From: Vicinamibacteria bacterium
GTDB taxonomy: Bacteria; Acidobacteriota; Vicinamibacteria; Fen-336
Assembly: GCA_036556965.1 (NCBI GenBank)
Contig: DATBIO010000241.1
Location: 160-64,159, forward strand
Direction of reading: 5' to 3'
DNA length: 64,000 bases
Under the pieces are notes generated by a model. It made no database searches. It had not been told where the DNA came from and saw only the letters and a program-made list of their open reading frames with translations. Positions 2,192 through 23,831 of this stretch are shown here, piece by piece (within the stretch, counting starts at the first letter, position 1; each line of letters starts with the position of its first letter). The position numbers and the translations under genes are program-made.

Positions 2192-2776
2192 GATTCGGCG
2201 TCCTTCCGTCCCAGGGCCACGCGCAAGAGGCGGCGCGCCCGGTGGAGCTGTGCCTTGCTGGTGCCGGTGGCCACTCCCGTCATCTCCGCGATCTCGTCGT
2301 GGCGGTAGCCCTCGACGTCGTGCAGGACGAAGACCTGGCGCGCCCCCGGGGGGAGGGTGGCCATCGCCCGGTCGAGGTCGAGCCCGTGCTCCGGCCGGCG
2401 GACGGGCGCCGGGCCGTCGTAGGCCTCGAGGTCGTCGGTCGGCGTGATCCGCGAGGTGCGGCGGCGCCGGGCACGCCGTTCGGAGAGGGCGGTGTTGACG
2501 GTGAGCGTGTGCAGCCAGGAGCCGAAGGCGCTCTCCCCCCGGAAGGAGGAGAGCTTCTGCCAGGCCCGCACGAACACGTCCTGCGTCAGCTCTTCGGCCA
2601 AGGTCGCCTCTCCCGCCATCCGGTAGCACAGCGCATACGTCCGGCGCACGTGGGACCGGTACAGCTCCTCGAAGGCGGAGAGGTCTCCCGACTGGGCGCG
2701 CCGCACCAGCCCCCGCTCGGCCTCCCGCCTCTCCGCGTCGGCAACGACCCTGATGGCCTCCTCCTGGCGCGTCACC
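2188..2776 (-). CDS. ECF (sigma-70 family, group IV) RNA polymerase sigma factor
   Basis: Region 2: RRAQSGDLSAFEELYRSHVRRTYALCYRM. Region 4: HDVEGYRHDEIAEMTGVATGTSKAQLHRARRLLR. Probable GTG start near 2776 (or TTG near 2787). The rest of the 845-aa ORF is spurious. Confidence 0.85.
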
Positions 2777-2889
2777 GGGCTGCACAAGGCCAACGTCGTC
2801 ACGCACTTCTGAGATGCCGCCCGCCCCGGCCCGGTTTGAAGCGGGGCGGCCGCAGTATGACAATCCGGCTCCTTCCAAGCGAGGTGTGC

Positions 2890-4650
2890 ATGTCCCTGCG
2901 GCTCTGTGCCTTCCTGGCCCTGCTGGCCACCCCTGCCCTGGGCGCCACGCACCGGCTGACCCCCACTTCGGGCTTCCCGACCTTCGCCGTGCGGCCCCCC
3001 ATCCTGACCGTGCAGCCCGGCGACGTCCTCGAGAGCGAGACGCTCTGGGGAGAGTGGTACGAGAAGCCGGGCGGGAAGTGGCCGGGGGAAGTCGGGCCCG
3101 TCGCGGTGGCCGGCGCCGAGCCCGGGGACACGCTGGTGGTGGACATCCTGAAGGTGCGGCCCAACCGCGACACGGCCGTCTCCACGCAGGGAGGCCGCTT
3201 CGGCGCCCTGGTGCCCGACCGCGGCACGGCCTTCCTCAACGACGTCTTCCCCCAGGGGCGCTACGTCTGGCGCCTGGACCGCCAGCGCATGACGGGCACG
3301 GTGGACCTGCCGGGGAGCACCCTGCGCCAGGTGACGATCCCCCTGCGTCCCATGCTGGGCCGCGTGGCCACCGCGCCCGAGGACGAGGAGGCCTTCGGCG
3401 GGCTCTGGCCGGGTCCGTTCGGCGGGAACATGGACGCCTCCGACGTGCGGGAGGGGACGCGCGTCTATCTGCCCGTCTTCCATCCGGGCGCCCTCTTCTA
3501 CTTCGGCGACGGCCATGCGGCCCAGGGCGACGCCGAGGTCTGCGGCTCGGGACTGGAGACGTCGATGGAGGTGGCCTTCCGGTTCTCGCTCCTGAAGAAG
3601 AAGGCCATCGAGTGGCCGCGCTTCGAGGACGCCGAGCACCTCATGGTGGCGGGGAGCGCGCGGCCCCTCAGCGACGCCCTGCGCATCGCCTTCGTCGAGC
3701 TGGTGAACTGGCTGGTGGCGGAGCACGGCTTCGCGAAGGCCGACGCCTACCAGCTCGTCTCGCAGACGGCGGTGGTGCGCGTGGCCAACATGGTGGACCC
3801 GATCTACACCGTGGTCGCGAAGTTCCCCAAGCGGTACCTGCCCGCGGCCACCGGGGCCGCCGCCCGCCCCGGCGTGCGCCTGGGGGACCTGCCGTGGACG
3901 GAGGCGGAGGCGGCGCTTCGGCCCGACCGCCTGGTCGTGCTCCCCCTGGGTGCCGCGGCCAAGGAGCACGGGCCGCACCTGCCCCTGCGCAACGACCAGA
4001 TCCTGGCCGACTACCTGGCCGCGCGGGTGGTGGCGTCGCGGCCGGTGGCCCTGCTTCCCACCCTGACCTACGGCTTCTACCCGGCCTTCCTGGAGTACCC
4101 GGGCTCGGTCTCCCTCTCCGCGGACACCCAGCGCGACGCGGTGGTGCAGATCGCGCGCTCCATCGCCCGCTACGGTCCGCGCCGCCTCTACGTGCTCAAC
4201 ACCGGCGTCTCCACCGCGCGGCCGCTGAAGGCGGCGGCCGAGCTGCTGGCCGCGGAGGGTGTCCTCCTTCGTTACACGGACGTGCTGGAGGCGGGGCGGG
4301 AGGCCGAGGAGCGCGTGCGCCAGCAGGCCAAGGGCACCCACGCCGACGAGATGGAGACCTCCATGGTGCTCTACATGGAGCCGGGCGCGGTGCGCATGGA
4401 GAGGGCGGTGGCGGACGGGCTCGGCGACGACGCCGGCCCCCTCACCCGCGACTCCGGCAACCGGGCCGGGCACTTCTCGCCGAGCGGCGTCTTCGGCGAC
4501 GCCACCCTGGCCACCTGGCACAAGGGCGAGCTCGTGACCGAGGCCAAGCTGGCCCACATCCTCGTCGACCTGGACGCGCTGGCGGCGGCCCCCCTGCCCC
4601 CGGGCGCGCCGCGCTCGCCGCTCGACCCGGTGCCCGCCACCGCCCGCTGA
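2890..4650 (+). CDS. secreted fusion protein: acetamidase/formamidase (FmdA_AmdA) domain + creatininase-family amidohydrolase domain
   Basis: Signal peptide MSLRLCAFLALLATPALGA. The N-terminal half has FmdA/AmdA motifs (VQPGDVL, GDGHAAQGDAEVCGSGLETSMEV). The C-terminal half has creatininase-family motifs (LPWTEAEAAL, VVLPLGAAAKEHGPHLPLRNDQILAD). One continuous frame, with an Ala/Pro linker between the two halves. Confidence 0.7.
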   Translation: MSLRLCAFLALLATPALGATHRLTPTSGFPTFAVRPPILTVQPGDVLESETLWGEWYEKPGGKWPGEVGPVAVAGAEPGDTLVVDILKVRPNRDTAVSTQGGRFGALVPDRGTAFLNDVFPQGRYVWRLDRQRMTGTVDLPGSTLRQVTIPLRPMLGRVATAPEDEEAFGGLWPGPFGGNMDASDVREGTRVYLPVFHPGALFYFGDGHAAQGDAEVCGSGLETSMEVAFRFSLLKKKAIEWPRFEDAEHLMVAGSARPLSDALRIAFVELVNWLVAEHGFAKADAYQLVSQTAVVRVANMVDPIYTVVAKFPKRYLPAATGAAARPGVRLGDLPWTEAEAALRPDRLVVLPLGAAAKEHGPHLPLRNDQILADYLAARVVASRPVALLPTLTYGFYPAFLEYPGSVSLSADTQRDAVVQIARSIARYGPRRLYVLNTGVSTARPLKAAAELLAAEGVLLRYTDVLEAGREAEERVRQQAKGTHADEMETSMVLYMEPGAVRMERAVADGLGDDAGPLTRDSGNRAGHFSPSGVFGDATLATWHKGELVTEAKLAHILVDLDALAAAPLPPGAPRSPLDPVPATAR

Positions 4651-7155: not shown

Positions 7156-7211
7156 CTGCGTACTTTACACTAGAACGGCCCGTTTGACCCCGCTCCGCGC
7201 CCCGGGTACGT

Positions 7212-11651
<4,440 letters not shown>

Positions 11652-11677
11652 CCGCGCCCGCGCCGGCAACCACCACG

Positions 11678-12169
11678 GTGACGCGCACGTACCTGGAGCG
11701 CACCGAGGCACCGGCCGGGCCCGCGCCCGCGCCGCCTGCCGGATATCGGCTGGAGCGGGCCTCGGGCTGCCCCGCCTCGTTCTATCGTTACCTTTACGCC
11801 GAAGTCGGCAGGGCCCACCACTGGACGGATCGCCTCGCGTGGAGCGACGAACAGATCAGCGCACACCTCGCGTGTCCCGGCGTGTCCCTGCACGTGCTCG
11901 GCGCGCAGGGGGTGCCCGCGGGGTACTTCGAGCTGGTGCGTCACGACGACGGGTCCGTCGAGATCGCGTACTTCGGGCTGCTCCCCGGGTTCCTGGGCCG
12001 CGGCCTGGGGCGCTACCTGTTGGAAGCGGCGGTGGCCCGCGCTTTCGGCGAGGGGACCGCGCGCGTCTGGCTGCACACCTGCACGCTCGATCATCCAGCG
12101 GCGCTGGGGAACTACCTGGCCCGGGGCTTCCGGGCCTTCCGGCAGGAAACCTACCTCCTCGGGGCCTGA
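11678..12169 (+). CDS. GNAT-family N-acetyltransferase
   Basis: GYFELVRHDDGSVEIAYFGLLPGFLGRGLGRYLLEAAV is the GNAT acetyl-CoA-binding motif. The ORF-track start (11537) overlaps the kinase gene. An in-frame GTG about 11678 lies just after the kinase stop. Confidence 0.65.
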   Translation: MTRTYLERTEAPAGPAPAPPAGYRLERASGCPASFYRYLYAEVGRAHHWTDRLAWSDEQISAHLACPGVSLHVLGAQGVPAGYFELVRHDDGSVEIAYFGLLPGFLGRGLGRYLLEAAVARAFGEGTARVWLHTCTLDHPAALGNYLARGFRAFRQETYLLGA

Positions 12170-12190
12170 AAACCTCCCAAGTCGTTGCGC

Positions 12191-12235
12191 TCCAACATAT
12201 GGGCTGCTAAGATGAATGGCCACAACATGTTGCGG
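12191..12235. promoter_or_regulatory. candidate NrdR operator upstream of nrdJ: two palindromic boxes about 30 bp apart
   Basis: Perfect palindrome CAACATGTTG inside ccACAACATGTTGcgg (12220-12235) matches 11/16 positions of the NrdR-box consensus acaCwAtATaTwGtgt as I recall it. A weaker CATATG-centred element lies about 3 helical turns upstream. The region is AT-richer than the flanking DNA. Confidence 0.3.
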
Positions 12236-12242
12236 TTTCTCC

Positions 12243-12271
12243 TTGACAGGCCCGTGACGCAGGTTTACAGT
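12243..12271 (+). promoter_or_regulatory. sigma-70-like promoter for nrdJ (TTGACA-N17-TACAGT)
   Basis: TTGACA followed 17 nt later by TACAGT, about 55 nt upstream of the nrdJ ATG. Confidence 0.35.
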
Positions 12272-12324
12272 CCGGCCCAATTCACCGGCCGACAGTCGTG
12301 ACCATCGAGAACCCGGAGGCACCC

Positions 12325-15054
12325 ATGTCCACCCACCCCCTCGACAGCTCCAAGACGGATGCACGGAATACCGTGCCTTCAAGCGGTCGAAAGGGGCTCG
12401 GGTTCAAGCGTTACTTTACAAAGGAGGGGCGCCATCCCTACGACGAGCTGACCTGGGAGCTGCGGTCGGCGGTCATCAACGACGAGCGGGGCCAGCCGGT
12501 CTTCGAGCAGCATGGAATCGAGGTCCCGACGACCTGGAGCCAGACCGCCACCAACATCGTGGCCTCGAAGTACTTCCGTGGCCAGCTCGGGTCCCCCGAT
12601 CGCGAGACCAGCGTGCGCCGGCTGATCTCGCGCGTCGTGGACACCATCACCCGTTGGGGGCAGGAGCAGGGCTACTTCGCCGAGGAGCAGGACCTGCGCG
12701 CCTTCTCGGACGAGCTGACCCACCTGCTCGTCCAGCAGAAGGCGGCCTTCAACAGCCCGGTCTGGTTCAACGTGGGCATCGAGAAGCACCCCCAGGCCTC
12801 GGCCTGCTTCATCAACTCCGTGAACGACACCATGGAGTCGATCCTCGGCCTGGCCAAGACCGAGGGCATGCTGTTCAAGTACGGCTCCGGCACCGGCTCG
12901 AACCTCTCCGCCATCCGCTCCTCGCGCGAGCCGCTGGCCGGCGGCGGGACGGCCTCCGGCCCGGTGTCCTTCATGCGGGGCTACGACGCGTTCGCGGGCG
13001 TGATCAAGAGCGGAGGCAAGACCCGCCGCGCCGCCAAGATGGTGATCCTCAACGCGGACCACCCCGACATCGAGGAGTTCATCACCTGCAAGGCGGACGA
13101 GGAGAAGAAGGCCTGGGCCCTCATCGAGGCCGGCTACGAGGGCGCCTTCAACGTCAAGGGCGGCGCCTACGACTCCGTCTTCTTCCAGAACGCCAACCAC
13201 TCCGTGCGCGTCTCCGACGACTTCATGCGCGCGGTGGTCGAGGACCGCGAGTGGACGACGCGCTACGTGCTGGGGGGCGAGCCCTGCCAGACCTACCGCG
13301 CGCGCGACCTCATGCGGCTGATGGCGGAGGCGGCCTGGCAGTGCGGCGACCCCGGCATGCAGTTCGACACCACCATCAACGACTGGCACACCTGCGCCAA
13401 CACGGCGCGCATCAACGCCAGCAACCCGTGCTCCGAGTACATGTTCCTCGACGACACGGCCTGCAACCTGGCCTCCCTGAACCTCATGAAGTTCCGGCGC
13501 GACGACGGCGAGTTCGACGTGGAGGCCTTCGGCGCCGCCTGCCGCACCATGATCACGGCCCAGGAGATCCTGGTCGACAACGCCAGCTACCCCACGGCTT
13601 CCATCGACCAGAACAGCCACGACTACCGCCCGCTGGGGCTGGGCTACGCGAACCTGGGCGTGCTGCTCATGGACCGCGCCCTGCCCTACGACAGCGACGC
13701 CGGCCGCGCCTACGCCGCCGCCATCACCGCTCTCATGCACGGGGAGGCCTACGCCCAGAGCGCGCGCCTGGCCGCGGCCATGGGGCCCTTCGCGGGCTAC
13801 GCCCGGAACGCGGAGCCCATGCTGCGCGTGGTGGACAAGCACCGGCAGCACGCGCACATGATCGACTCCACCCTGGTGCCGCGCGCAATGCTGCAGCGGG
13901 CCCTCGTGGTGTGGGACGAGGCCTACGCCCTGGGGGCCCAGTCCGGCTACCGCAACAGCCAGGTCACGGTGCTGGCGCCCACGGGCACCATCGGCTTCAT
14001 GATGGACTGCGACACCACCGGCATCGAGCCCGACATCGCCCTCGTCAAGTACAAGAAGCTGGTGGGCGGCGGGATGATGAAGATCGTCAACCAGTCCGTC
14101 CCCGGCGTGCTGGCCAAGCTCGGCTACGGCCCCGCCCAGGTGCAGGAGATCCTGGGCCACGTCGACGAGCACGAGACCATCGAGGGCGCGCCCCACCTCC
14201 GCGACGAGCACCTGCCCATCTTCGACTGCGCGTTCCCCGCCCGGAACGGCAGCCGGTCCATCGCCTACATGGGCCACGTCAAGATGATGTCGGCGGTGCA
14301 GCCCTTCCTCTCCGGGGCCATCTCCAAGACCGTCAACATGCCCGCCGACTCCACTCCCGACGACATCGCCCAGGCCTACGTCGAGTCCTGGCGCCTCGGC
14401 CTGAAGGCGGTGGCCGTCTACCGCGACGGCTCCAAGCGGTCCCAGCCCCTGGCCACCTCCAGGGAGGAGGCGGGGGCGCGCGAGGCGGCGGCGCAGCCGC
14501 GGCGGCGGAAGCTGCCGGACGAGCGCCGCTCGATCACGCACAAGTACTCGATCGCGGGCCACGAGGGCTACATCACGGCGGGCATGTACGAGGACGGGAA
14601 ACCGGGCGAGATCTTCCTGGTCATGGCCAAGGAGGGCTCCACCATCTCCGGGCTCATGGACGCCTTCGCCACCGCCATCTCCATCGCCCTCCAGTACGGG
14701 GTGCCGCTGGAGGCGCTGGTGGAGAAGTTCGCGCACGTGCGCTACGAGCCCAGCGGGTTCACCAAGAACCCGCAGATCCACTACGCCAAGAGCATCACGG
14801 ACTACATCTTCCGGTGGCTGGCCACGAAGTTCCTGCCCGAGGACGGGCAGGAGGAGGCGGCATCGGAGGCGGAGGCCGGCGACGCGCCCGAGCCCGCGGC
14901 GGCCAAGGCCCGGCCTGCGGCCGGGACCTCGCCCTCGACCAGCTACCGCAGCCAGGCCGACGCGCCGTCCTGCCACTACTGCGGCAGCATCATGACGCGC
15001 AACGGCAGCTGCTACCGCTGCGCGAACTGCGGCTCCACCTCGGGCTGCAGCTAG
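12325..15054 (+). CDS. nrdJ: class II (adenosylcobalamin-dependent) ribonucleoside-diphosphate/triphosphate reductase
   Basis: Strong similarity throughout, for example NSPVWFNVGI, the active-site block NPCSEYMFLDDTACNLASLNL, and the C-terminal zinc-ribbon CHYCGSIMTRNGSCYRCANCGSTSGCS. The ATG at about 12325 has GGAGG 7 nt upstream. The ORF-track start is a GTG at 12298. Confidence 0.9.
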   Translation: MSTHPLDSSKTDARNTVPSSGRKGLGFKRYFTKEGRHPYDELTWELRSAVINDERGQPVFEQHGIEVPTTWSQTATNIVASKYFRGQLGSPDRETSVRRLISRVVDTITRWGQEQGYFAEEQDLRAFSDELTHLLVQQKAAFNSPVWFNVGIEKHPQASACFINSVNDTMESILGLAKTEGMLFKYGSGTGSNLSAIRSSREPLAGGGTASGPVSFMRGYDAFAGVIKSGGKTRRAAKMVILNADHPDIEEFITCKADEEKKAWALIEAGYEGAFNVKGGAYDSVFFQNANHSVRVSDDFMRAVVEDREWTTRYVLGGEPCQTYRARDLMRLMAEAAWQCGDPGMQFDTTINDWHTCANTARINASNPCSEYMFLDDTACNLASLNLMKFRRDDGEFDVEAFGAACRTMITAQEILVDNASYPTASIDQNSHDYRPLGLGYANLGVLLMDRALPYDSDAGRAYAAAITALMHGEAYAQSARLAAAMGPFAGYARNAEPMLRVVDKHRQHAHMIDSTLVPRAMLQRALVVWDEAYALGAQSGYRNSQVTVLAPTGTIGFMMDCDTTGIEPDIALVKYKKLVGGGMMKIVNQSVPGVLAKLGYGPAQVQEILGHVDEHETIEGAPHLRDEHLPIFDCAFPARNGSRSIAYMGHVKMMSAVQPFLSGAISKTVNMPADSTPDDIAQAYVESWRLGLKAVAVYRDGSKRSQPLATSREEAGAREAAAQPRRRKLPDERRSITHKYSIAGHEGYITAGMYEDGKPGEIFLVMAKEGSTISGLMDAFATAISIALQYGVPLEALVEKFAHVRYEPSGFTKNPQIHYAKSITDYIFRWLATKFLPEDGQEEAASEAEAGDAPEPAAAKARPAAGTSPSTSYRSQADAPSCHYCGSIMTRNGSCYRCANCGSTSGCS

Positions 15055-17527: not shown

Positions 17528-19339
17528 TCAGGCCGAGCACTCTCCTGCCAACGTCTCCACCCGGTACTCGCCCTCCTCGCCCAGGTCCACGAAATCGGCG
17601 GGCAGCGCGTCCTCGGGCGTGAGGCGCTCCAGGTCGGCGAGGGCGGCCTTGAGGCGCGCGTCGTCCGCGGAGCGCAGCCACTCCAGCGCCGTCTGGCCCG
17701 GAGCGCGCTCCTGCCGGTAGAGAGCGACCAGCCGCTCCACGGCGTCGGGCACGCGGCGGGCCGGGATCTTCGCCACCAGCCGGCCGAACTGCGCGTGGCC
17801 GTTCACGCCGCCCCCCACCATCACGAAGTACTGGGGGACGACCCGGTCCCCGAGCCGGCGCACGCTGCCCTGGAAGCCGAGCCCCGCCACGTGGTGCTGG
17901 CCGCACCCGTTGGGGCAGCCGCTGATCTTGAGGTCGAGGGAGCCCGCGGCGTCCACGAGGTCCGGACGCGCGCGCAGGCGCTGCTCGAGGGCGCGCCCGA
18001 GCCCGCGCGACTGGGTCACGGCCAGGCGGCAGGCTTCCGCCCCCGGGCAGCTCGTCACGTCGGCCAGCGTGCGCGCGCCGTCCGTGGCCAGGGCGGCCAC
18101 GGCGAGGCGGCGGTAAAGCTCGGGCACGTCTCCCGCGCGCACCCAGCGCAGCAGGAGGTCCTGGTCGTGCGTCGTGCGCACGGTCCCGTCGCCGTAGGCC
18201 TGGGCGAAGTCGGCGAGCAGCCGCAGCTGGGCCGCGGTGACGTCCCCCAGCGGCAGCGTCACCGTCACCGTGGCGTAGGGCGCCTGGCGCTGCGGCCGGA
18301 CGTTGGTGCCGCGCCACCGCAGGAAGGCGCCGTCGAGGACGGGCAGGAACCGCCGCGGCTCGGGCACCAGCCCGGGCCCCTTCACGCGGCCGGCGGCGGC
18401 GCGCGCCGCCACCTCGCCCAGCGTCGGCGGACGCGGCCGCGCGCCGGGCGGCGCGTCTTCGCGGGGTGAATCCCCGGCGGGGAAGGGAAGCGGTGCCTGC
18501 ACCGCGGCCAGCTCGTGCGCGTAGTGCCCGCGGAAGGCCTCGAAGCCGCCGAGGTCGCGCACCAGGAACTTCAGCCGGTTGCGCTGCTTGTGCTCGTAGT
18601 CGCCGAGGCGGTGATAGACGCGCACCACGGCCTCCGCCACGCGCAGGATCTCGCCCGCGGGCAGGGCCTCGTGCAGGACCTCGCCGGAGCGCGGGAGGAT
18701 CGAGGTGCCCCCGCCGGCGGTGACGCGGAAGACGCGCCGCCCCTCCAGCACCGCCGCCCGGAAGCCGAGGTCGTTGATGGCGGTGAGGGAGTGGTCGGCC
18801 GCGCAGCCCTCGAAGGCGATCTTGAACTTGCGCGGCAGCGTCGAGCTGAGAGGGTGGCGCAGCAGGTGGCGCGTGAGCGCCTCCGCGTAGGGCGTCACGT
18901 CGAAGGCCTCGTCCGCCGCCACTCCCGCCCAGGGGCAGGCCGTGACGTTGCGCACCGCGTTGCCGCAGGCCTCGCGCGTGGTGAGGCCGGCCTCGGCCAG
19001 CCGCGCCAGGACCGGACCCACGTCGTGCAGCTTCAGGAAGTGGAACTGCACGTTCTGCCGGGTGGTGACGTGGCCGAAGCCCCGCGACCAGCGCTCGGCC
19101 ACGTCGGCCAGGGCGTGGAGCTGGGGACCGTCCAGCACGCCCTGCGGGACCTTGACCCGGATCATCTGGGCGTCGCCCGCCTGGCGCTGGCCGTAGGTCC
19201 CGCGCACGAGGCGGTAGGCGCGCCACTCGTCGGGCGTCAGCTCGCCGCGCTCGTAACGCTCGACGGTGGCCACGAACTCGTCCGCCTCCGAGGCCTCGGC
19301 GAAAGAGGCCCGCGTGCGGCCCTCAGCGAGAAGCGGCAT
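17528..19339 (-). CDS. sir: assimilatory sulfite reductase (ferredoxin-type nitrite/sulfite reductase hemoprotein)
   Basis: Siroheme/4Fe-4S ligating cysteines: TREACGNAVRNVTACP and SGCPNGCGQHHVAGLG. An AGGAGGAGG SD precedes the ATG at about 19339. Confidence 0.85.
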   Translation of the reverse strand: MPLLAEGRTRASFAEASEADEFVATVERYERGELTPDEWRAYRLVRGTYGQRQAGDAQMIRVKVPQGVLDGPQLHALADVAERWSRGFGHVTTRQNVQFHFLKLHDVGPVLARLAEAGLTTREACGNAVRNVTACPWAGVAADEAFDVTPYAEALTRHLLRHPLSSTLPRKFKIAFEGCAADHSLTAINDLGFRAAVLEGRRVFRVTAGGGTSILPRSGEVLHEALPAGEILRVAEAVVRVYHRLGDYEHKQRNRLKFLVRDLGGFEAFRGHYAHELAAVQAPLPFPAGDSPREDAPPGARPRPPTLGEVAARAAAGRVKGPGLVPEPRRFLPVLDGAFLRWRGTNVRPQRQAPYATVTVTLPLGDVTAAQLRLLADFAQAYGDGTVRTTHDQDLLLRWVRAGDVPELYRRLAVAALATDGARTLADVTSCPGAEACRLAVTQSRGLGRALEQRLRARPDLVDAAGSLDLKISGCPNGCGQHHVAGLGFQGSVRRLGDRVVPQYFVMVGGGVNGHAQFGRLVAKIPARRVPDAVERLVALYRQERAPGQTALEWLRSADDARLKAALADLERLTPEDALPADFVDLGEEGEYRVETLAGECSA

Positions 19340-20078
19340 GGCGTTCCTCCTCCTGCGTCCCGGCGATGGCGCCGGCCAGGGCGGCCACCGCGCCGACCAC
19401 CAGCGTCCCCGGGAGGTCACCCGGTTCTTCGTCCGCCGCGGCCAGGCCGCGCAGCGTGCCGTGCCATGCGGACTGCGCTTCGGTCCCCGCGCCGCGCACG
19501 ACCGCGGCCGGCGTCTCCGCGCGCCACCCGCGCGCCAGGAGGGCGGCGCCGATGGCCGGCCGCGCGCGCAGCCCCATGAGCACCACCACCGTGGCCGCTC
19601 CCGGCTCCAGGGTGTCGAGCACCGGGCGCCAGGCCGTCTCCGCGTGGCCGGACACCACGACGAAGGCGGAGGCGAGGCCGCGGTGGGTCACCGGGATGCC
19701 GGCCAGGGCGGGAGCGGCGACGGCGCAGGTGACCCCGGGCACCACCGCGAAGGGCACCGAGGCCGCGCGCAGGGCCAGCGCCTCCTCGCCGCCCCGCCCG
19801 AGCACGAAGGGGTCGCCGCCCTTGAGCCGCACCACGCGCCGGCCGCGACGGGCCGCGCGCACGAGCAGGCGGTGGATGGTCTCCTGGCTCACGGAGGCGC
19901 GGCCGTGTCGTTTCCCGACGCTGAAGCACTGGGCGCGCCGAGCCAGGGCCAGGGTGGCCGGGGAGACGAGCGCGTCGTAGAGGACGAGGTCGGCCTCGGC
20001 CAGCACGCGCGCGGCGCGGAGCGTGAGCAGCTCGGGGTCGCCCGGGCCCGCGCCCACCAGCCAGACGAAGCCGCTCAC
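19323..20078 (-). CDS. cobA: uroporphyrinogen-III C-methyltransferase (SUMT)
   Basis: GFVWLVGAGPGDPELLTLRAARVLAEADLVLYDALV and VRLKGGDPFVLGRGGEE. GTG start overlaps the stop of the upstream gene (GTGA). Confidence 0.85.
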   Translation of the reverse strand: MSGFVWLVGAGPGDPELLTLRAARVLAEADLVLYDALVSPATLALARRAQCFSVGKRHGRASVSQETIHRLLVRAARRGRRVVRLKGGDPFVLGRGGEEALALRAASVPFAVVPGVTCAVAAPALAGIPVTHRGLASAFVVVSGHAETAWRPVLDTLEPGAATVVVLMGLRARPAIGAALLARGWRAETPAAVVRGAGTEAQSAWHGTLRGLAAADEEPGDLPGTLVVGAVAALAGAIAGTQEEERHAASR

Positions 20079-20653
20079 GGCCCGCTCCGCGCCGGCGCCT
20101 CGTAGAGGCGGTTGAGCGCGCGCAGGAGCAGCGGCCGCCGCTCGCCGAAGGCGACGCCCTCCGCGCGTTGCCGTAGGCGCAGGTCCTGGGCCGCCGCCAC
20201 CCATTCCGCGGCGTCCTCGGGCAGCACCGCGTCCAGCGCCTCTCGCAGCAGGCCGGCCAGGGCGGGGGCACGGCCCCCGGTGGAGACGGCCACGGTGACG
20301 CCGCCACGCCGCAGCACGCCCGCGGCGTAGGCGCTGGCCTGCTCGGGATCGTCCACCGTGTTCACGAAGATGCGGCGCGCCTCGGCGGCCACCGCCACCT
20401 CCCGGTTCACGGGAGGCACTGCGGCGGCCACGGCCAGCCAGGCCCCGTCGAGGTCGGAGGCCGCGAAGGGGCGGCGCGCGACCTCCGCGCCCGAGGCTGC
20501 GATCTCGGGGTGGACGTCGGGCGCCACCACCAGCACCCGCGCGCCCGTTCCCAGGAGGAGGCGCAGCCGCGAGGCGGCGACGCGCCCGCCTCCCACGAGC
20601 ACCACGCGCCGCCCGGCCAGCTTCAGGAACAGCGGGAACAGCTCGGCGCTCAC
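20075..20653 (-). CDS. sirC: precorrin-2 dehydrogenase / sirohydrochlorin ferrochelatase (siroheme synthase N-terminal domain, SirC/Met8-like)
   Basis: [41 protein letters not shown] is a Rossmann NAD-binding motif of the CysG N-terminal domain. GTG start overlaps the stop of the cysH-sat-cysC gene (GTGA). Confidence 0.75.
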
Positions 20654-23217
20654 GAGGCCAGCGCCCTGGGTGCGCCGCGCGACACCAGGCCCCGCTCCTC
20701 CAGGGTGGCCACGATGAGCTCCAGGCTCTCCTCCACCGTCTGCGTGGCCGTCTCCACCACGACGTCGGGGCGCGGGGGGGCCTCGTAGGGGTCGGAGATG
20801 CCGGTGAAGTGGGGCAGGCTGCCGTCCAGGGCCTTCCGGTAGAGACCCTTGACGTCCCGCGCCACCAGGGCTTCGAGCGGCGCGCGCGCGTAGACCTCCA
20901 GGAAGGGGATGCCCTCCGCCGCTGCCTCGCCCCGGAGCTCCTCGCGCACGGCGGCGTAGGGCGAGATGGCGGCGGCGACCACGCCCGCGCCGTGCCGGGC
21001 GAGAAGACGCGCCACGAAGCCGATGCGGCGGATGTTCGTGTCGCGGTCCTCGCGCGAGAACCCGAGGCCCTTGGACAGGTGCGTGCGCACCTCGTCCCCG
21101 TCCAGGACCTCGAGGGCCCGCACGCCCTGAAGCCGGCGGACGAGGGCGGAGGCCAGCGTGCTCTTGCCGGCGCCGCTGAGGCCCGTGAACCAGACGATGA
21201 AGCCCTCCCCGCCGCGGGAGGCAGGGGCGGCGCCTGCGCGCTCGACCCCGCCCGCGCTCCCGGGCACGGCGTGGGGAGCGTGCGCGCGTCCGCCGGAGGC
21301 GGCGTAGTGCGCGCGGAGCACCTCCGCCACCTCCGGACGCGTGAACTGCCGCGGCAGCTCGCCGCCGCCCCGCAGGATCTCGCGCACCTTCGTGCCCGAG
21401 AGCTCGAGGCGGGCGGACTCCCCGTGCGGGCACGTCCGCTCGGAGGCGAGGGCGTCGCACTCGCGGCAGAAGAAGGTGGGGCGCAGCCGCAGGGGCTGGA
21501 CGCCCAGCTCCTCCGCCGGGAAGCGGTCGAAGATGGCCTGGGCGTCGTAGGGGCCGTAGTAGCGGCCGACGCCGGCGTGGTCGCGGCCCACGATGAGGTG
21601 CGTGATGCCGTAGTTCTTCCGCACCAGGGCGTGGAACAGGGCCTCCCGCGGCCCCGCGTAGCGCATGGCGGCGGGGAAGGCGGCCAGCAGCGTGCGCCCC
21701 GCCGGGTAGTAGCCCGTGACCAGGGCCTCGTAGGCGCGGAACCGCACCTCCGCGGGCACGTCGTCGTCCTTGGTCTGCCCGATGAGGGGGTGGAGGACCA
21801 GCCCGTCCGCGATCTCGAGGGCCAGCTTGGTGAGGTGCTCGTGGGCGCGGTGGATCGGGTTGCGCGTCTGGAAGCCGGCCACCGTGCGCCAGCCGCGCCG
21901 CGCGATCTCCGCGCGGAGGGCGCGCGGGGTGAGCCGGTAGCGGGCGAAGGGCAGGTCGGCGGGGGGCGGCAGGACCGTGACCTCGCCCCCGGCCAGCCAG
22001 GACGGACGCTGGAGCAGGTAGGCGACGCCCGGGTGGGCGGGGTCGTCGGTCCCGTAGACGGCGCGGGCCTCGCGCCCGGCGTCGCGCGGGAAGACCTCCG
22101 CCACCCTGAGCAGGCCCCGGAGCCGCCCGCTCTCGTCGTGCCGGGCGGCCTCCGCGCGCGGGCGCAGAAGGGCGCGCGCCTCGTCGGAGACGGAGAGCGT
22201 CACGGGGAGCGGCCACACCGTGCCGTGCGCGAGGCGGAGCCTCTCCAGCACGCTCTCGTAGTCCTCGCGGCCGAGGAACCCGGTGAGGGGGCTGAAGGCG
22301 CCCACCCCCAGCAGCTCGAGGTCGGCCGCCTCGCGCCCGTCGAGGCACAACGACGGCAGGTCGGCGGCACGGCGCCGCACGGCGTCCACGTCGTGGGCGG
22401 CCGCGAGCCGGTCCACGAGGGCGCCGCCGTGCGGCGCGACCAGGGGCTCGCCACCGGGGTTGATGCTCATGGGCAAGGGTTCCTTTCCTTCGAAGGTGAC
22501 GGCGGGGACGGCGACGGCGCGGGGACGGGTGTGCAGGCCGCACTCGCGGCGGTGCGAGCCGCGCCAGCGTCCGGCGCGCTCGTCCTCGTCCTCCGCCACC
22601 GCGGTGGTGCACGGCCAGCAGCCCAGGCTGGGATAGCCGCGCGCGTGCAGCGGGTTGGTGGGAACGTCGTGGGCGCGCAGGTAGCTCCACACCTCCGACC
22701 GGCCCCAGTGGGCGAGGGGGTTGACCTTCACCACCCCGAAGCGAGGGTCGCGCTCGACGAGGGCGGAGGCGGCGCGGTCCGCCGATTGCTGCCGGCGGAT
22801 GGCGGTGACCCACGCGTCGAGGGAGGCGAGCACGCGCTCGAGGGGCGCCACCTTGCGCAGCGCGCAGCACCGGCCGGGGTCGCGCGCCCACAGGGCGTCG
22901 CCGTGGGCCGCCGCCTGCGCGGCCACCGTCTGCCCGGGCACGACGCCGCGGATGGTGATGCCGTAGCGCTGCTCGAGGCGGCGCCAGAGGTCGTAGCTCT
23001 CGGCGAAGAACAGGCCGGTGTCGAGGGTGAAGACGTCGATGGGCAGCCGGTGGCGCGCGACGAGGTCCACGAGAAGGCAGCCTTCCGGGCCGAAGGCGGT
23101 GGCCAGGGCCAGGCGGGGTGCGAAGCGCGCGGCCGCCCAGGCGAGGACCTCCTGGGGCGGACGCCCCTCCAGGCGTCGGCTGGCTTCGGCGAGTTCGGCG
23201 GCGGACGGCGTACCCAT
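20650..23217 (-). CDS. trifunctional fusion: Fe-S-type adenylyl-sulfate/PAPS reductase (CysH) + sulfate adenylyltransferase (Sat) + adenylyl-sulfate kinase (CysC)
   Basis: One uninterrupted ORF. CysH block with [15 protein letters not shown] and ECGLH. Sat block with [13 protein letters not shown] and GRDHAGVG. CysC block with [23 protein letters not shown] precedes the ATG at about 23217. Confidence 0.8.
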
Positions 23218-23244
23218 CGGGCTCCCTCGTGCGTGGTGCTCCGG

Positions 23245-23286
23245 AAAAGCCAAAGGCCCGGGGCTTTCGCCTCCGGGCCTGTGGGG
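23245..23286 (-). terminator. GC-rich hairpin with GAAA loop followed by a U-rich tract, immediately 5' of the cysH RBS (terminator or attenuator)
   Basis: In minus-strand sense: GGCCCGGAGGC-GAAA-GCCCCGGGCC then UUUGGCUUUUCC, then the GAGGGAG SD and ATG. A second hairpin GGGCCG-cuuc-CGGCCC lies about 40 nt upstream. Confidence 0.4.
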
Positions 23287-23444: not shown

Positions 23445-23831
23445 TCATGGCTGGCGCGCCAGCCACGCCTCGAGGGGCGCGCGGTCATCCGGGTCCTTGA
23501 TGCGGCCGAGGATGGCCGCGCGCCTGGACGCCACCACCGCCGGCTGGTCGAACGGCAGCTGGTCGTACATCTGCCCGCCCGGGTTGTGGCAGGGCCCGCA
23601 CCGCCGCGCCAGCATCGGCTTCACCGCTCCCGCGAACAGGTCGGGCTCGGTCGGCCCCTCGGCGGCGGGCGCCGCCTCCATGGCGGGGATGGACGCGGGC
23701 AACGGCTCCTGCGCCGCGGCGGGAGGGGGAGGCACGGGAGCGGCCACCGCGCGGGGCGCCTCCGCCCTTCCCGCGCCGCACGCCGCGGCCAGCCCGGCCA
23801 CGACCACGGCCACGAAACGGGAGGAGGGCAT
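23445..23831 (-). CDS. small secreted/lipoprotein with a single CxxCH motif (putative c-type cytochrome-like)
   Basis: Signal peptide MPSSRFVAVVVAGLAAACG. Pro/Ala-rich linker. Motif RRCGPCHNPGG. Confidence 0.5.
   Translation of the reverse strand: MPSSRFVAVVVAGLAAACGAGRAEAPRAVAAPVPPPPAAAQEPLPASIPAMEAAPAAEGPTEPDLFAGAVKPMLARRCGPCHNPGGQMYDQLPFDQPAVVASRRAAILGRIKDPDDRAPLEAWLARQP

Follow-up and report, generated by a model that had tools for sequence, protein, structure and literature searches.

A 64,000-nucleotide stretch of a soil Vicinamibacteria metagenome-assembled genome (MAG; contig DATBIO010000241.1, positions 160 to 64,159, hereafter the window, with a G+C content of ~75%) carries one open reading frame (ORF) with the modules of a sulfonucleotide reductase (CysH), an ATP sulfurylase (Sat) and an adenosine 5'-phosphosulfate (APS) kinase (CysC). 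We conclude, with a probability of roughly 0.8, that this cysH-sat-cysC gene (20650-23217, minus strand; 855 amino acids, aa) is a genuine fusion of adjacent, translationally coupled cysH and sat-cysC genes and that it encodes an ordinary assimilatory three-module enzyme. The protein is deposited as NCBI HEY7412364.1, from a Vicinamibacteria MAG, where its public name is only "sulfate adenylyltransferase". The modules are all well-known enzymes, the origin of the fusion is trivial and the architecture is already present in public databases. We found no published description of a bacterial CysH-Sat-CysC protein in the literature, the nearest case being a dinoflagellate fusion of ATP sulfurylase and APS reductase (ATPS-APR).

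The ORF starts with an ATG at 23217 and runs uninterrupted to 20650; this and all other positions within the gene refer to the minus strand. An SD (Shine-Dalgarno)-like GAGGGAG, read from the sequence, lies 4 nucleotides (nt) upstream of this ATG (23222-23228), and a TTG at 23253 offers an alternative start. An earlier reading of the DNA alone (the original prediction) had placed CysH, Sat and CysC in that order on a single chain, and this architecture is borne out by Pfam, NCBIfam and ~17 divergent homologues. Searches with the three Pfam families named at that time (PF01507, PF01747 and PF01583) place PAPS_reduct (PF01507, aa 36-205, E 7e-43) N-terminal to ATP-sulfurylase (PF01747, aa 426-636, E 2e-91) on the same protein, with PUA_2 (PF14306, aa 261-416, E 8e-46) between them and APS_kinase (PF01583, aa 672-822, E 4e-53) behind. 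Among the NCBIfam models, NF002537 for CysH reaches 252-254 bits (cut-off 154), TIGR00339 for Sat 388 (cut-off 323), NF003166, which covers the Sat module of the fused protein, 486 (cut-off 387) and the equivalog-domain model TIGR00455 for APS kinase 196 (cut-off 139), so that each is passed.

Every motif cited by the original prediction, including CC...CxxC and ECGLH, is found in the ORF, and the position that it gave for the CysH/Sat junction is correct. Based on hidden Markov models and motifs, the CysH module (aa 1-229; 22531-23217) belongs to the iron-sulfur (Fe-S)-type sulfonucleotide (APS) reductases. Its Fe-S ligand codons lie at 22864-22869 (C117/C118) and 22609-22620 (C200/C203), followed by a RAGRW lid motif (aa 214-218) and the catalytic ECGLH (aa 225-229; 22531-22545); the motifs R(S/E/A)GR(W/F) and ECG(L/I)H have been described for the mobile C-terminal lid of such reductases (PMC8173546). 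Linker 1 (aa 230-249; 22471-22530) separates ECGLH from the Sat module, whose N-terminal PUA_2 domain occupies 21970-22437, with PHGG beginning at 22434. The ATP-sulfurylase catalytic domain (21310-21942) contains motifs at aa 450-462 and GRDHAGVG at aa 544-551, with QxRNP, HxxH and GRDHAG all present in the Sat module. Linker 2 (aa 643-669; 21211-21291), which is Ala/Gly/Pro-rich and variable, leads to the APS kinase domain (20752-21204), where the P-loop (aa 679-689) and FTGISDPYE are intact. In an alignment of 17 fused proteins, the catalytic motifs of all three enzymes are invariant, whereas both linkers vary in length and sequence; linker 1 is unconserved. An AlphaFold2 (AF2) model shows three folded modules and low-confidence segments at residues 232-257 and 643-669, with a predicted local distance difference test (pLDDT) score below 50 in both linkers, and does not confidently place the packing between domains (predicted template-modelling score, pTM, 0.48). 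One residue of the PUA_2 domain stands apart: codon 359 (22141-22143) is Arg (CGG) in the window and Leu (CTG) in a near-identical variant of the gene (L002), in the partial sequence P0001 and in at least 90% of the family, and Arg359 may be a strain-specific substitution or a base error.

The original prediction had named a stop codon or frameshift at the junction in independent data as the observation that would undo it, and three further metagenome assemblies contain neither. The identical 855-aa ORF is present in JGI sample 3300036836 (L090), and the L002 variant, with 854 of 855 residues identical, in JGI samples 3300036840 and 3300056388; L002 differs from the window gene at 3 nt, none of them at the junction. 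Since the same ORF recurs in independent assemblies, and many divergent fused clusters retain invariant catalytic residues, a frameshift or missed-stop artefact is excluded for the window lineage. P0001, a 588-aa "Sat-CysC" that is 99% identical to the window protein, was considered as an unfused allele and rejected, because its contig starts inside the gene and does not inform on the junction.

Comparison with unfused relatives points to how the fusion arose. In these Vicinamibacteria the gene order is tauE-cysH-sat/cysC-sirC-cobA-sir, with a cysH of 244 aa and a sat/cysC of 584 aa, and the cysH stop and sat start overlap by 4 nt as ATGA (sequence of locus L004). The window gene retains this ATGA internally (22467-22470): its ATG is Met250, the ancestral sat start, and its TGA, the ancestral cysH stop, is now out of frame (+1). 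This relic is the basis for proposing a frameshift origin, in which a 1-nt insertion or deletion (indel) just behind ECGLH, where the 3' end of cysH is dispensable, would have brought cysH into the sat frame; in a high-GC genome with few stop codons, the altered frame would then have read directly through into sat. In the window, 20 aa separate ECGLH from the junction, vs 18 aa between ECGLH and the stop in unfused L004, and the comparison points to linker 1 as the frameshifted 3' tail of the ancestral cysH. More generally, the case illustrates how genes that overlap by 4 nt and are translationally coupled fuse again and again via single frameshifts in high-GC genomes, where stops are rare in every frame.

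The architecture is not confined to the window. We found 16 further clusters at 90% identity with the same four-domain arrangement in NCBI, JGI and ENA data, 58-67% identical and 782-905 aa long, one of which (P0009) has 25 members. Using a neighbour-joining (NJ) tree of the Sat-CysC part of 17 fused and 100 unfused sequences, with 200 bootstrap replicates and Fitch parsimony, we counted 10 changes between the fused and unfused states on the NJ tree and 8-11 in all 200 replicates. The fused P0002 is 87% identical to the unfused P0021, but its identity to other fused proteins does not exceed 74%. In these trees the fused state is not monophyletic, and 8-11 independent fusion or fission events are required, indicating that fusion is easy, sporadic and rare. 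The gene is less special than the original prediction had implied; the fusion arose many times by a trivial mechanism.

Several observations weigh against a genuine and useful fusion. About 18 fused clusters at 90% identity stand against hundreds of unfused ones, and the 150 best matches out of 1.84 billion 50%-identity representatives include no separate fused cluster, a search that shows rarity and gives no count, the fused proteins seemingly being represented there by the unfused cluster P0144. Among the junction-profile matches listed in GTDB species representatives, only 1 of 12 loci is fused, in a Myxococcaceae MAG; in the other 11, cysH and sat are neighbours but separate genes. One of these loci belongs to the cultured Deinococcus navajonensis, where a stop codon in frame divides cysH from sat, and there is no cultured carrier of the fusion among these matches. 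The carriers are all uncultured MAGs or metagenome contigs, known from sequence alone, and several fused lineages consist of one sequence on one contig, where an assembly indel is possible. In addition, CysH carries its catalytic Cys on a mobile lid at the C-terminus, which has to open, close and meet thioredoxin (PMC8173546), and attachment of this lid to a ~600-aa partner might hamper the reductase. The rare and sporadic distribution argues against a strong selective advantage, so that any benefit is probably small.

A search of proteins with the junction profile returned no new full-length fusions, only two fragments, and its matches were mostly stand-alone CysH proteins from the word-index preselection. 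The fragments, P0294 (273 aa) and P0295 (296 aa), lie on ENA contigs of 57 and 111 kb and each read in a single frame from the CysH C-terminus through a linker into the N-terminus of PUA_2; they probably come from fused genes that frameshifts in the assemblies have split. If so, additional fused lineages are hidden from surveys based on length.

The preserved sat start raises a tentative possibility that is compatible with the genuine fusion: one ORF may give two products, with initiation also at Met250 yielding a free Sat-CysC of 606 aa beside the full-length protein. The window carries GAAGGAAAGGAA at 22480-22491, 9 nt upstream of the internal ATG, as a relic or functional SD of the ancestral sat. 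It is built from rare codons, GAA accounting for 10% of the Glu codons and GGA for 5% of the Gly codons; the fused gene has 9 such GAA/GGA codons (and no AAA), 3 of which cluster at codons 243-246. All seven fused genes with available DNA have an ATG at the ancestral sat start together with a purine-rich SD-like patch, namely GGAAAGGAA-N9 in the window and in L003, AAGGAG in L086 and L088 and GGAGGA in L089. Scored by SD duplex energy, each against its own background, the seven genes have percentile values from 0.009 to 0.26, and a hand-computed Fisher combination, which treats related genes as independent, gives p ~4e-4. Furthermore, "MS" before (L)VxPHGG is kept in most of the 17 fused proteins, also in clades fused by descent (P0007/14/15, P0009/16 and P0004/5). 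However, this retention may be inertia after a recent fusion, as the window keeps even the out-of-frame TGA; the SD score of the window itself is unremarkable (22nd percentile against a G-rich background), and K/E/G-rich sequence is also typical of a flexible linker. Calibration against sat starts of unfused loci was noisy, the automatic start choice being wrong in several, and serves qualitatively only. From the sequence, internal initiation giving free Sat-CysC is physically plausible.

We next consider which sulfonucleotide the reductase module would use. Its best structural matches are the M. tuberculosis [4Fe-4S] enzyme 7LHR (164 bits), 7RGE (147), a reductase for 3'-phosphoadenosine 5'-phosphosulfate (PAPS), and the P. 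aeruginosa enzyme 2GOY (135). With the Fe-S enzymes 7LHR and 2GOY the module shares a common fold, CC-X~80-CXXC, the RxGRW lid and the ECGLH nucleophile; its CC...CxxC aligns to the cluster ligands of both, and 7RGE and 2OQ2, both PAPS reductases, have residues other than Cys at these positions. The PAPS_reduct fold, CC-X~80-CXXC, and RAGRW and ECGLH, invariant in the 17 fused proteins, are together those of an APS reductase. Neither subclass model reaches its cut-off: TIGR02055 (APS reductase) scores 212-216 bits against 235.3 and TIGR02057 (PAPS reductase) 176-181 against 254. We also tried to read the APS/PAPS preference from the P-loop and dropped this approach; the ATAFGPEG of the window is intermediate between the GAED-type loop of the P. 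aeruginosa APS reductase and the TAFGLTG of 7RGE and 2OQ2.

A linear three-step enzyme, in which the Fe-S reductase prefers or accepts PAPS and the kinase feeds it (sulfate to APS to PAPS to sulfite), is an alternative that we consider unlikely. In its favour, both APS and PAPS are substrates of the B. subtilis Fe-S reductase belonging to this class (PMC1175818), reductase and kinase are always co-encoded in this operon family, the metagenomic protein P0158 joins CysC directly to an Fe-S CysH without Sat, and no curated model assigns the subclass (TIGR02055 scores below 235). On the other hand, CC-X81-CxxC is the motif that defines the bacterial APS-reducing class (PMC1175818), the nearest solved relatives, 7LHR and 2GOY, are APS reductases, and TIGR02055 outscores TIGR02057 (216 vs 181 bits). 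The PAPS path needs one extra ATP, and no CysQ-like phosphatase for 3'-phosphoadenosine 5'-phosphate (PAP) was found among the scanned window ORFs. P0158 itself (445 aa; CC..CxxC and ECGLH in its CysH part) is ~55% identical to the window modules and could have arisen by deletion or by a separate fusion event; it is a hint that reductase and kinase are functionally coupled.

The original prediction had found it odd that an APS-type reductase should be joined to an APS kinase. This pairing predates the fusion: cysH already adjoins sat-cysC in the unfused operon, so that by sequence comparison it is ancestral and no oddity of the fused gene. The same pairing occurs at an APS branch point in M. 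tuberculosis (PMC4373884), and the B. subtilis enzyme accepts PAPS too (PMC1175818). The M. tuberculosis system of CysD-CysN/CysC and CysH resembles the window gene in that APS is likewise the branch point and the kinase is fused to the sulfurylase machinery (PMC4373884). It differs in having a heterodimeric, GTPase-driven CysDN sulfurylase and a separate reductase, whereas the window has a Sat of the homo-oligomeric type.

Returning to the three-module assimilatory enzyme that we favour, we picture a "beads-on-a-string" protein. The Sat module would convert sulfate and ATP into APS, the N-terminal CysH module would reduce APS to sulfite through a thiosulfonate intermediate at Cys226 that thioredoxin resolves, and the C-terminal CysC module would turn APS into PAPS as a side branch for sulfation or an extra sink. 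Sulfite would pass to the sirohaem sulfite reductase encoded downstream, with its cofactor made by the co-transcribed sirC and cobA products. Both consumers of APS would sit beside its producer and should help to draw the unfavourable sulfurylase reaction forward and keep free APS low. The protein probably serves ordinary assimilatory sulfate reduction, in which a single chain both makes and consumes APS; we infer all three activities, the substrate preference and any channelling from the sequence. Algal fusions of ATPS with APR or with pyrophosphatase have been explained by the same APS-pull or channelling rationale (PMC2275785), and Sat fusions elsewhere attach potential pullers, namely pyrophosphatase, a CysQ-like phosphatase and pyruvate kinase. 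As the fusion recurs but stays rare, the benefit of tethering is probably small.

We doubt a stronger version, in which the protein is a selected APS branch-point enzyme whose tethered lid takes APS at Sat or PAPS from the kinase, and in which initiation at the retained internal ribosome-binding site and ATG tunes how much tethered and free enzyme is made. If true, a single mRNA would set the balance between tethered (reductive) and free (PAPS-forming) Sat-CysC.

Tethering is also what distinguishes the window protein from its single-module relatives. In known Fe-S CysH proteins, ECGLH lies a few residues from a free and mobile C-terminus, whereas here a 20-aa linker and a 606-aa partner follow. 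Plant APS reductase (APR) shows that an Fe-S APS reductase tolerates an appended domain, as it carries a C-terminal thioredoxin-like domain after the ECGLH tail (PMC1175818); there the appended domain is the reductant, whereas in the window the appended part is the substrate-making enzyme. The ATPS-APR of the dinoflagellate Heterocapsa triquetra likewise combines activation and APS reduction on one chain, for which its authors proposed APS channelling (PMC2275785). It differs in being eukaryotic, in having an APR without the Fe-S cysteine pairs and in having no reported APS kinase domain, and represents an independent event.

The part behind linker 1 resembles ordinary bifunctional enzymes. 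Residues 250-855 form a complete PUA_2/ATP-sulfurylase/APS-kinase protein that is 65-71% identical to hundreds of ordinary Sat-CysC proteins of 580-620 aa from Vicinamibacteria and Myxococcota. Its best PDB match is the Aquifex aeolicus Sat-CysC 2GKS (436 bits), to which the window protein adds the N-terminal 230-aa reductase. With PUA_2, ATP-sulfurylase, the catalytic motifs and above-cut-off scores for TIGR00339 and NF003166, the first portion is identified as an ATP sulfurylase; PF01583, TIGR00455 and invariant motifs likewise identify the second as an APS kinase. The score for NF004040, the bifunctional Sat/CysC equivalog, falls short (545-547 bits, cut-off 669), and because the unfused P0025 is also below it (563), we attribute the shortfall to divergence of the clade and not to the fusion.

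It is improbable that the C-terminal kinase-like domain is non-catalytic and leaves the protein bifunctional, serving for allostery or oligomerisation as it does in the ATP sulfurylase of fungi or the enzyme of T. denitrificans. Patron et al. give the APS kinase domain of fungi a regulatory role, not a catalytic one (PMC2275785), and 3CR8 is among the structural relatives, but the P-loop and FTG..DPYE are invariant in all 17 fused proteins, TIGR00455 scores above its cut-off, and the best structural relative, A. aeolicus 2GKS, is a bifunctional SAT/APS kinase. Since GxxGxGKS, LDGD, ISPY and KGLY are complete in the window, there is no reason to expect a degenerate regulatory kinase.

Least probable by far is that a spurious single-base indel in sequencing or assembly merged two real genes: one indel at a 4-nt overlap would suffice in a 75% GC genome with rare stop codons, some fused homologues are singletons, and P0294 and P0295 resemble frameshift-broken fragments on long ENA contigs, but the 855-aa ORF occurs in the window contig and three JGI samples as two strain variants, the 25 members of P0009 come from JGI, NCBI and ENA (most of the 15 listed are 814-829 aa), and linkers are common by descent within fused clades.

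The neighbourhood of the fused gene fits the assimilatory role. The original prediction had it heading an operon with sirC, cobA and a sulfite reductase gene, and these genes indeed follow on the same strand and overlap one another. A sirC-like gene (20075-20653, minus strand) for a precorrin-2 dehydrogenase/ferrochelatase of CysG N-terminal type overlaps the fused gene, and cobA (19323-20078, minus strand), for uroporphyrinogen-III C-methyltransferase, overlaps sirC, in both cases by the GTGA that had been proposed. The third link is of another kind: the gene for a NirA/Sir-type sirohaem-[4Fe-4S] sulfite reductase (17528-19339, minus strand; 603 aa) overlaps cobA by 17 nt, its ATG lying at 19339 and the cobA TGA at 19323-19325. 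Co-directional, overlapping genes for reductase, activation, sirohaem synthesis and sulfite reductase identify an assimilatory sulfate-reduction operon. The sirC-cobA-sir set lies downstream of every fused gene examined with flanks, L003 having a fused sirC-cobA instead, and the same gene order is seen in unfused P0025 loci. Rfam families, sigma-70 promoters and terminators were sought in the leader and across the operon, with no matches or matches at chance level.

Directly upstream of the fused gene is a 128-aa ORF (23445-23831, minus strand) with a lipoprotein-like N-terminus (...VVVAGLAAACGAG) and a CGPCH motif resembling the CxxCH of haem c, which has no Pfam match. An independent JGI contig has this ORF in the same place, which in relatives is taken by tauE, cysK or an ABC importer.

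Other junctions of this operon are also fused in other lineages. P0061 (804 aa) is a Sat-CysC-SirC fusion, and the SirC-CobA fusion of L003, the Myxococcaceae MAG, is a CysG-like protein of 448 aa that adjoins the fused gene (10595-11941 of that locus). Sat and Sat-CysC form a fusion hub among 50%-identity representatives (P0172, P0186, P0256, P0196, P0236, P0197, P0250, P0161 and P0238), with arrangements that include pyruvate-kinase barrel-Sat-CysC, pyrophosphatase-Sat-CysC, Sat-CysC-pyrophosphatase, Sat-CysC-inositol-monophosphatase (CysQ-like) and Sat-phosphodiesterase. P0238 has a Hint/LAGLIDADG intein between its Sat and CysC domains.

If active, the window protein would be the most compact known bacterial unit for converting sulfate to sulfite, and a natural test case both for APS channelling and for the freedom that the C-terminal lid of the reductase needs. 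The fusion also matters for annotation: with cysH and cysC hidden in a gene named sat, pathway reconstructions that expect a stand-alone cysH or cysC would wrongly score these steps as missing in such MAGs.

Elsewhere in the window, scans of the whole stretch for Rfam families, riboswitches included, and for tRNAs returned nothing. An 818-codon stop-to-stop frame (2194-4650, plus strand) has an acetamidase/formamidase (FmdA_AmdA) match and a complete creatininase domain, and could be a same-frame fusion or two genes without a stop between them. A hybrid sensor kinase of ~1400 aa (7188-11651, plus strand) combines a periplasmic SBP_bac_3 domain, multiple PAS domains, HisKA/HATPase, a receiver and Hpt. 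The G+C content dips to 0.68 (vs ~0.75) at 12001-14000, over the gene for a class II (B12-dependent) ribonucleotide reductase (12247-15054, plus strand), which has a TSCPD domain.

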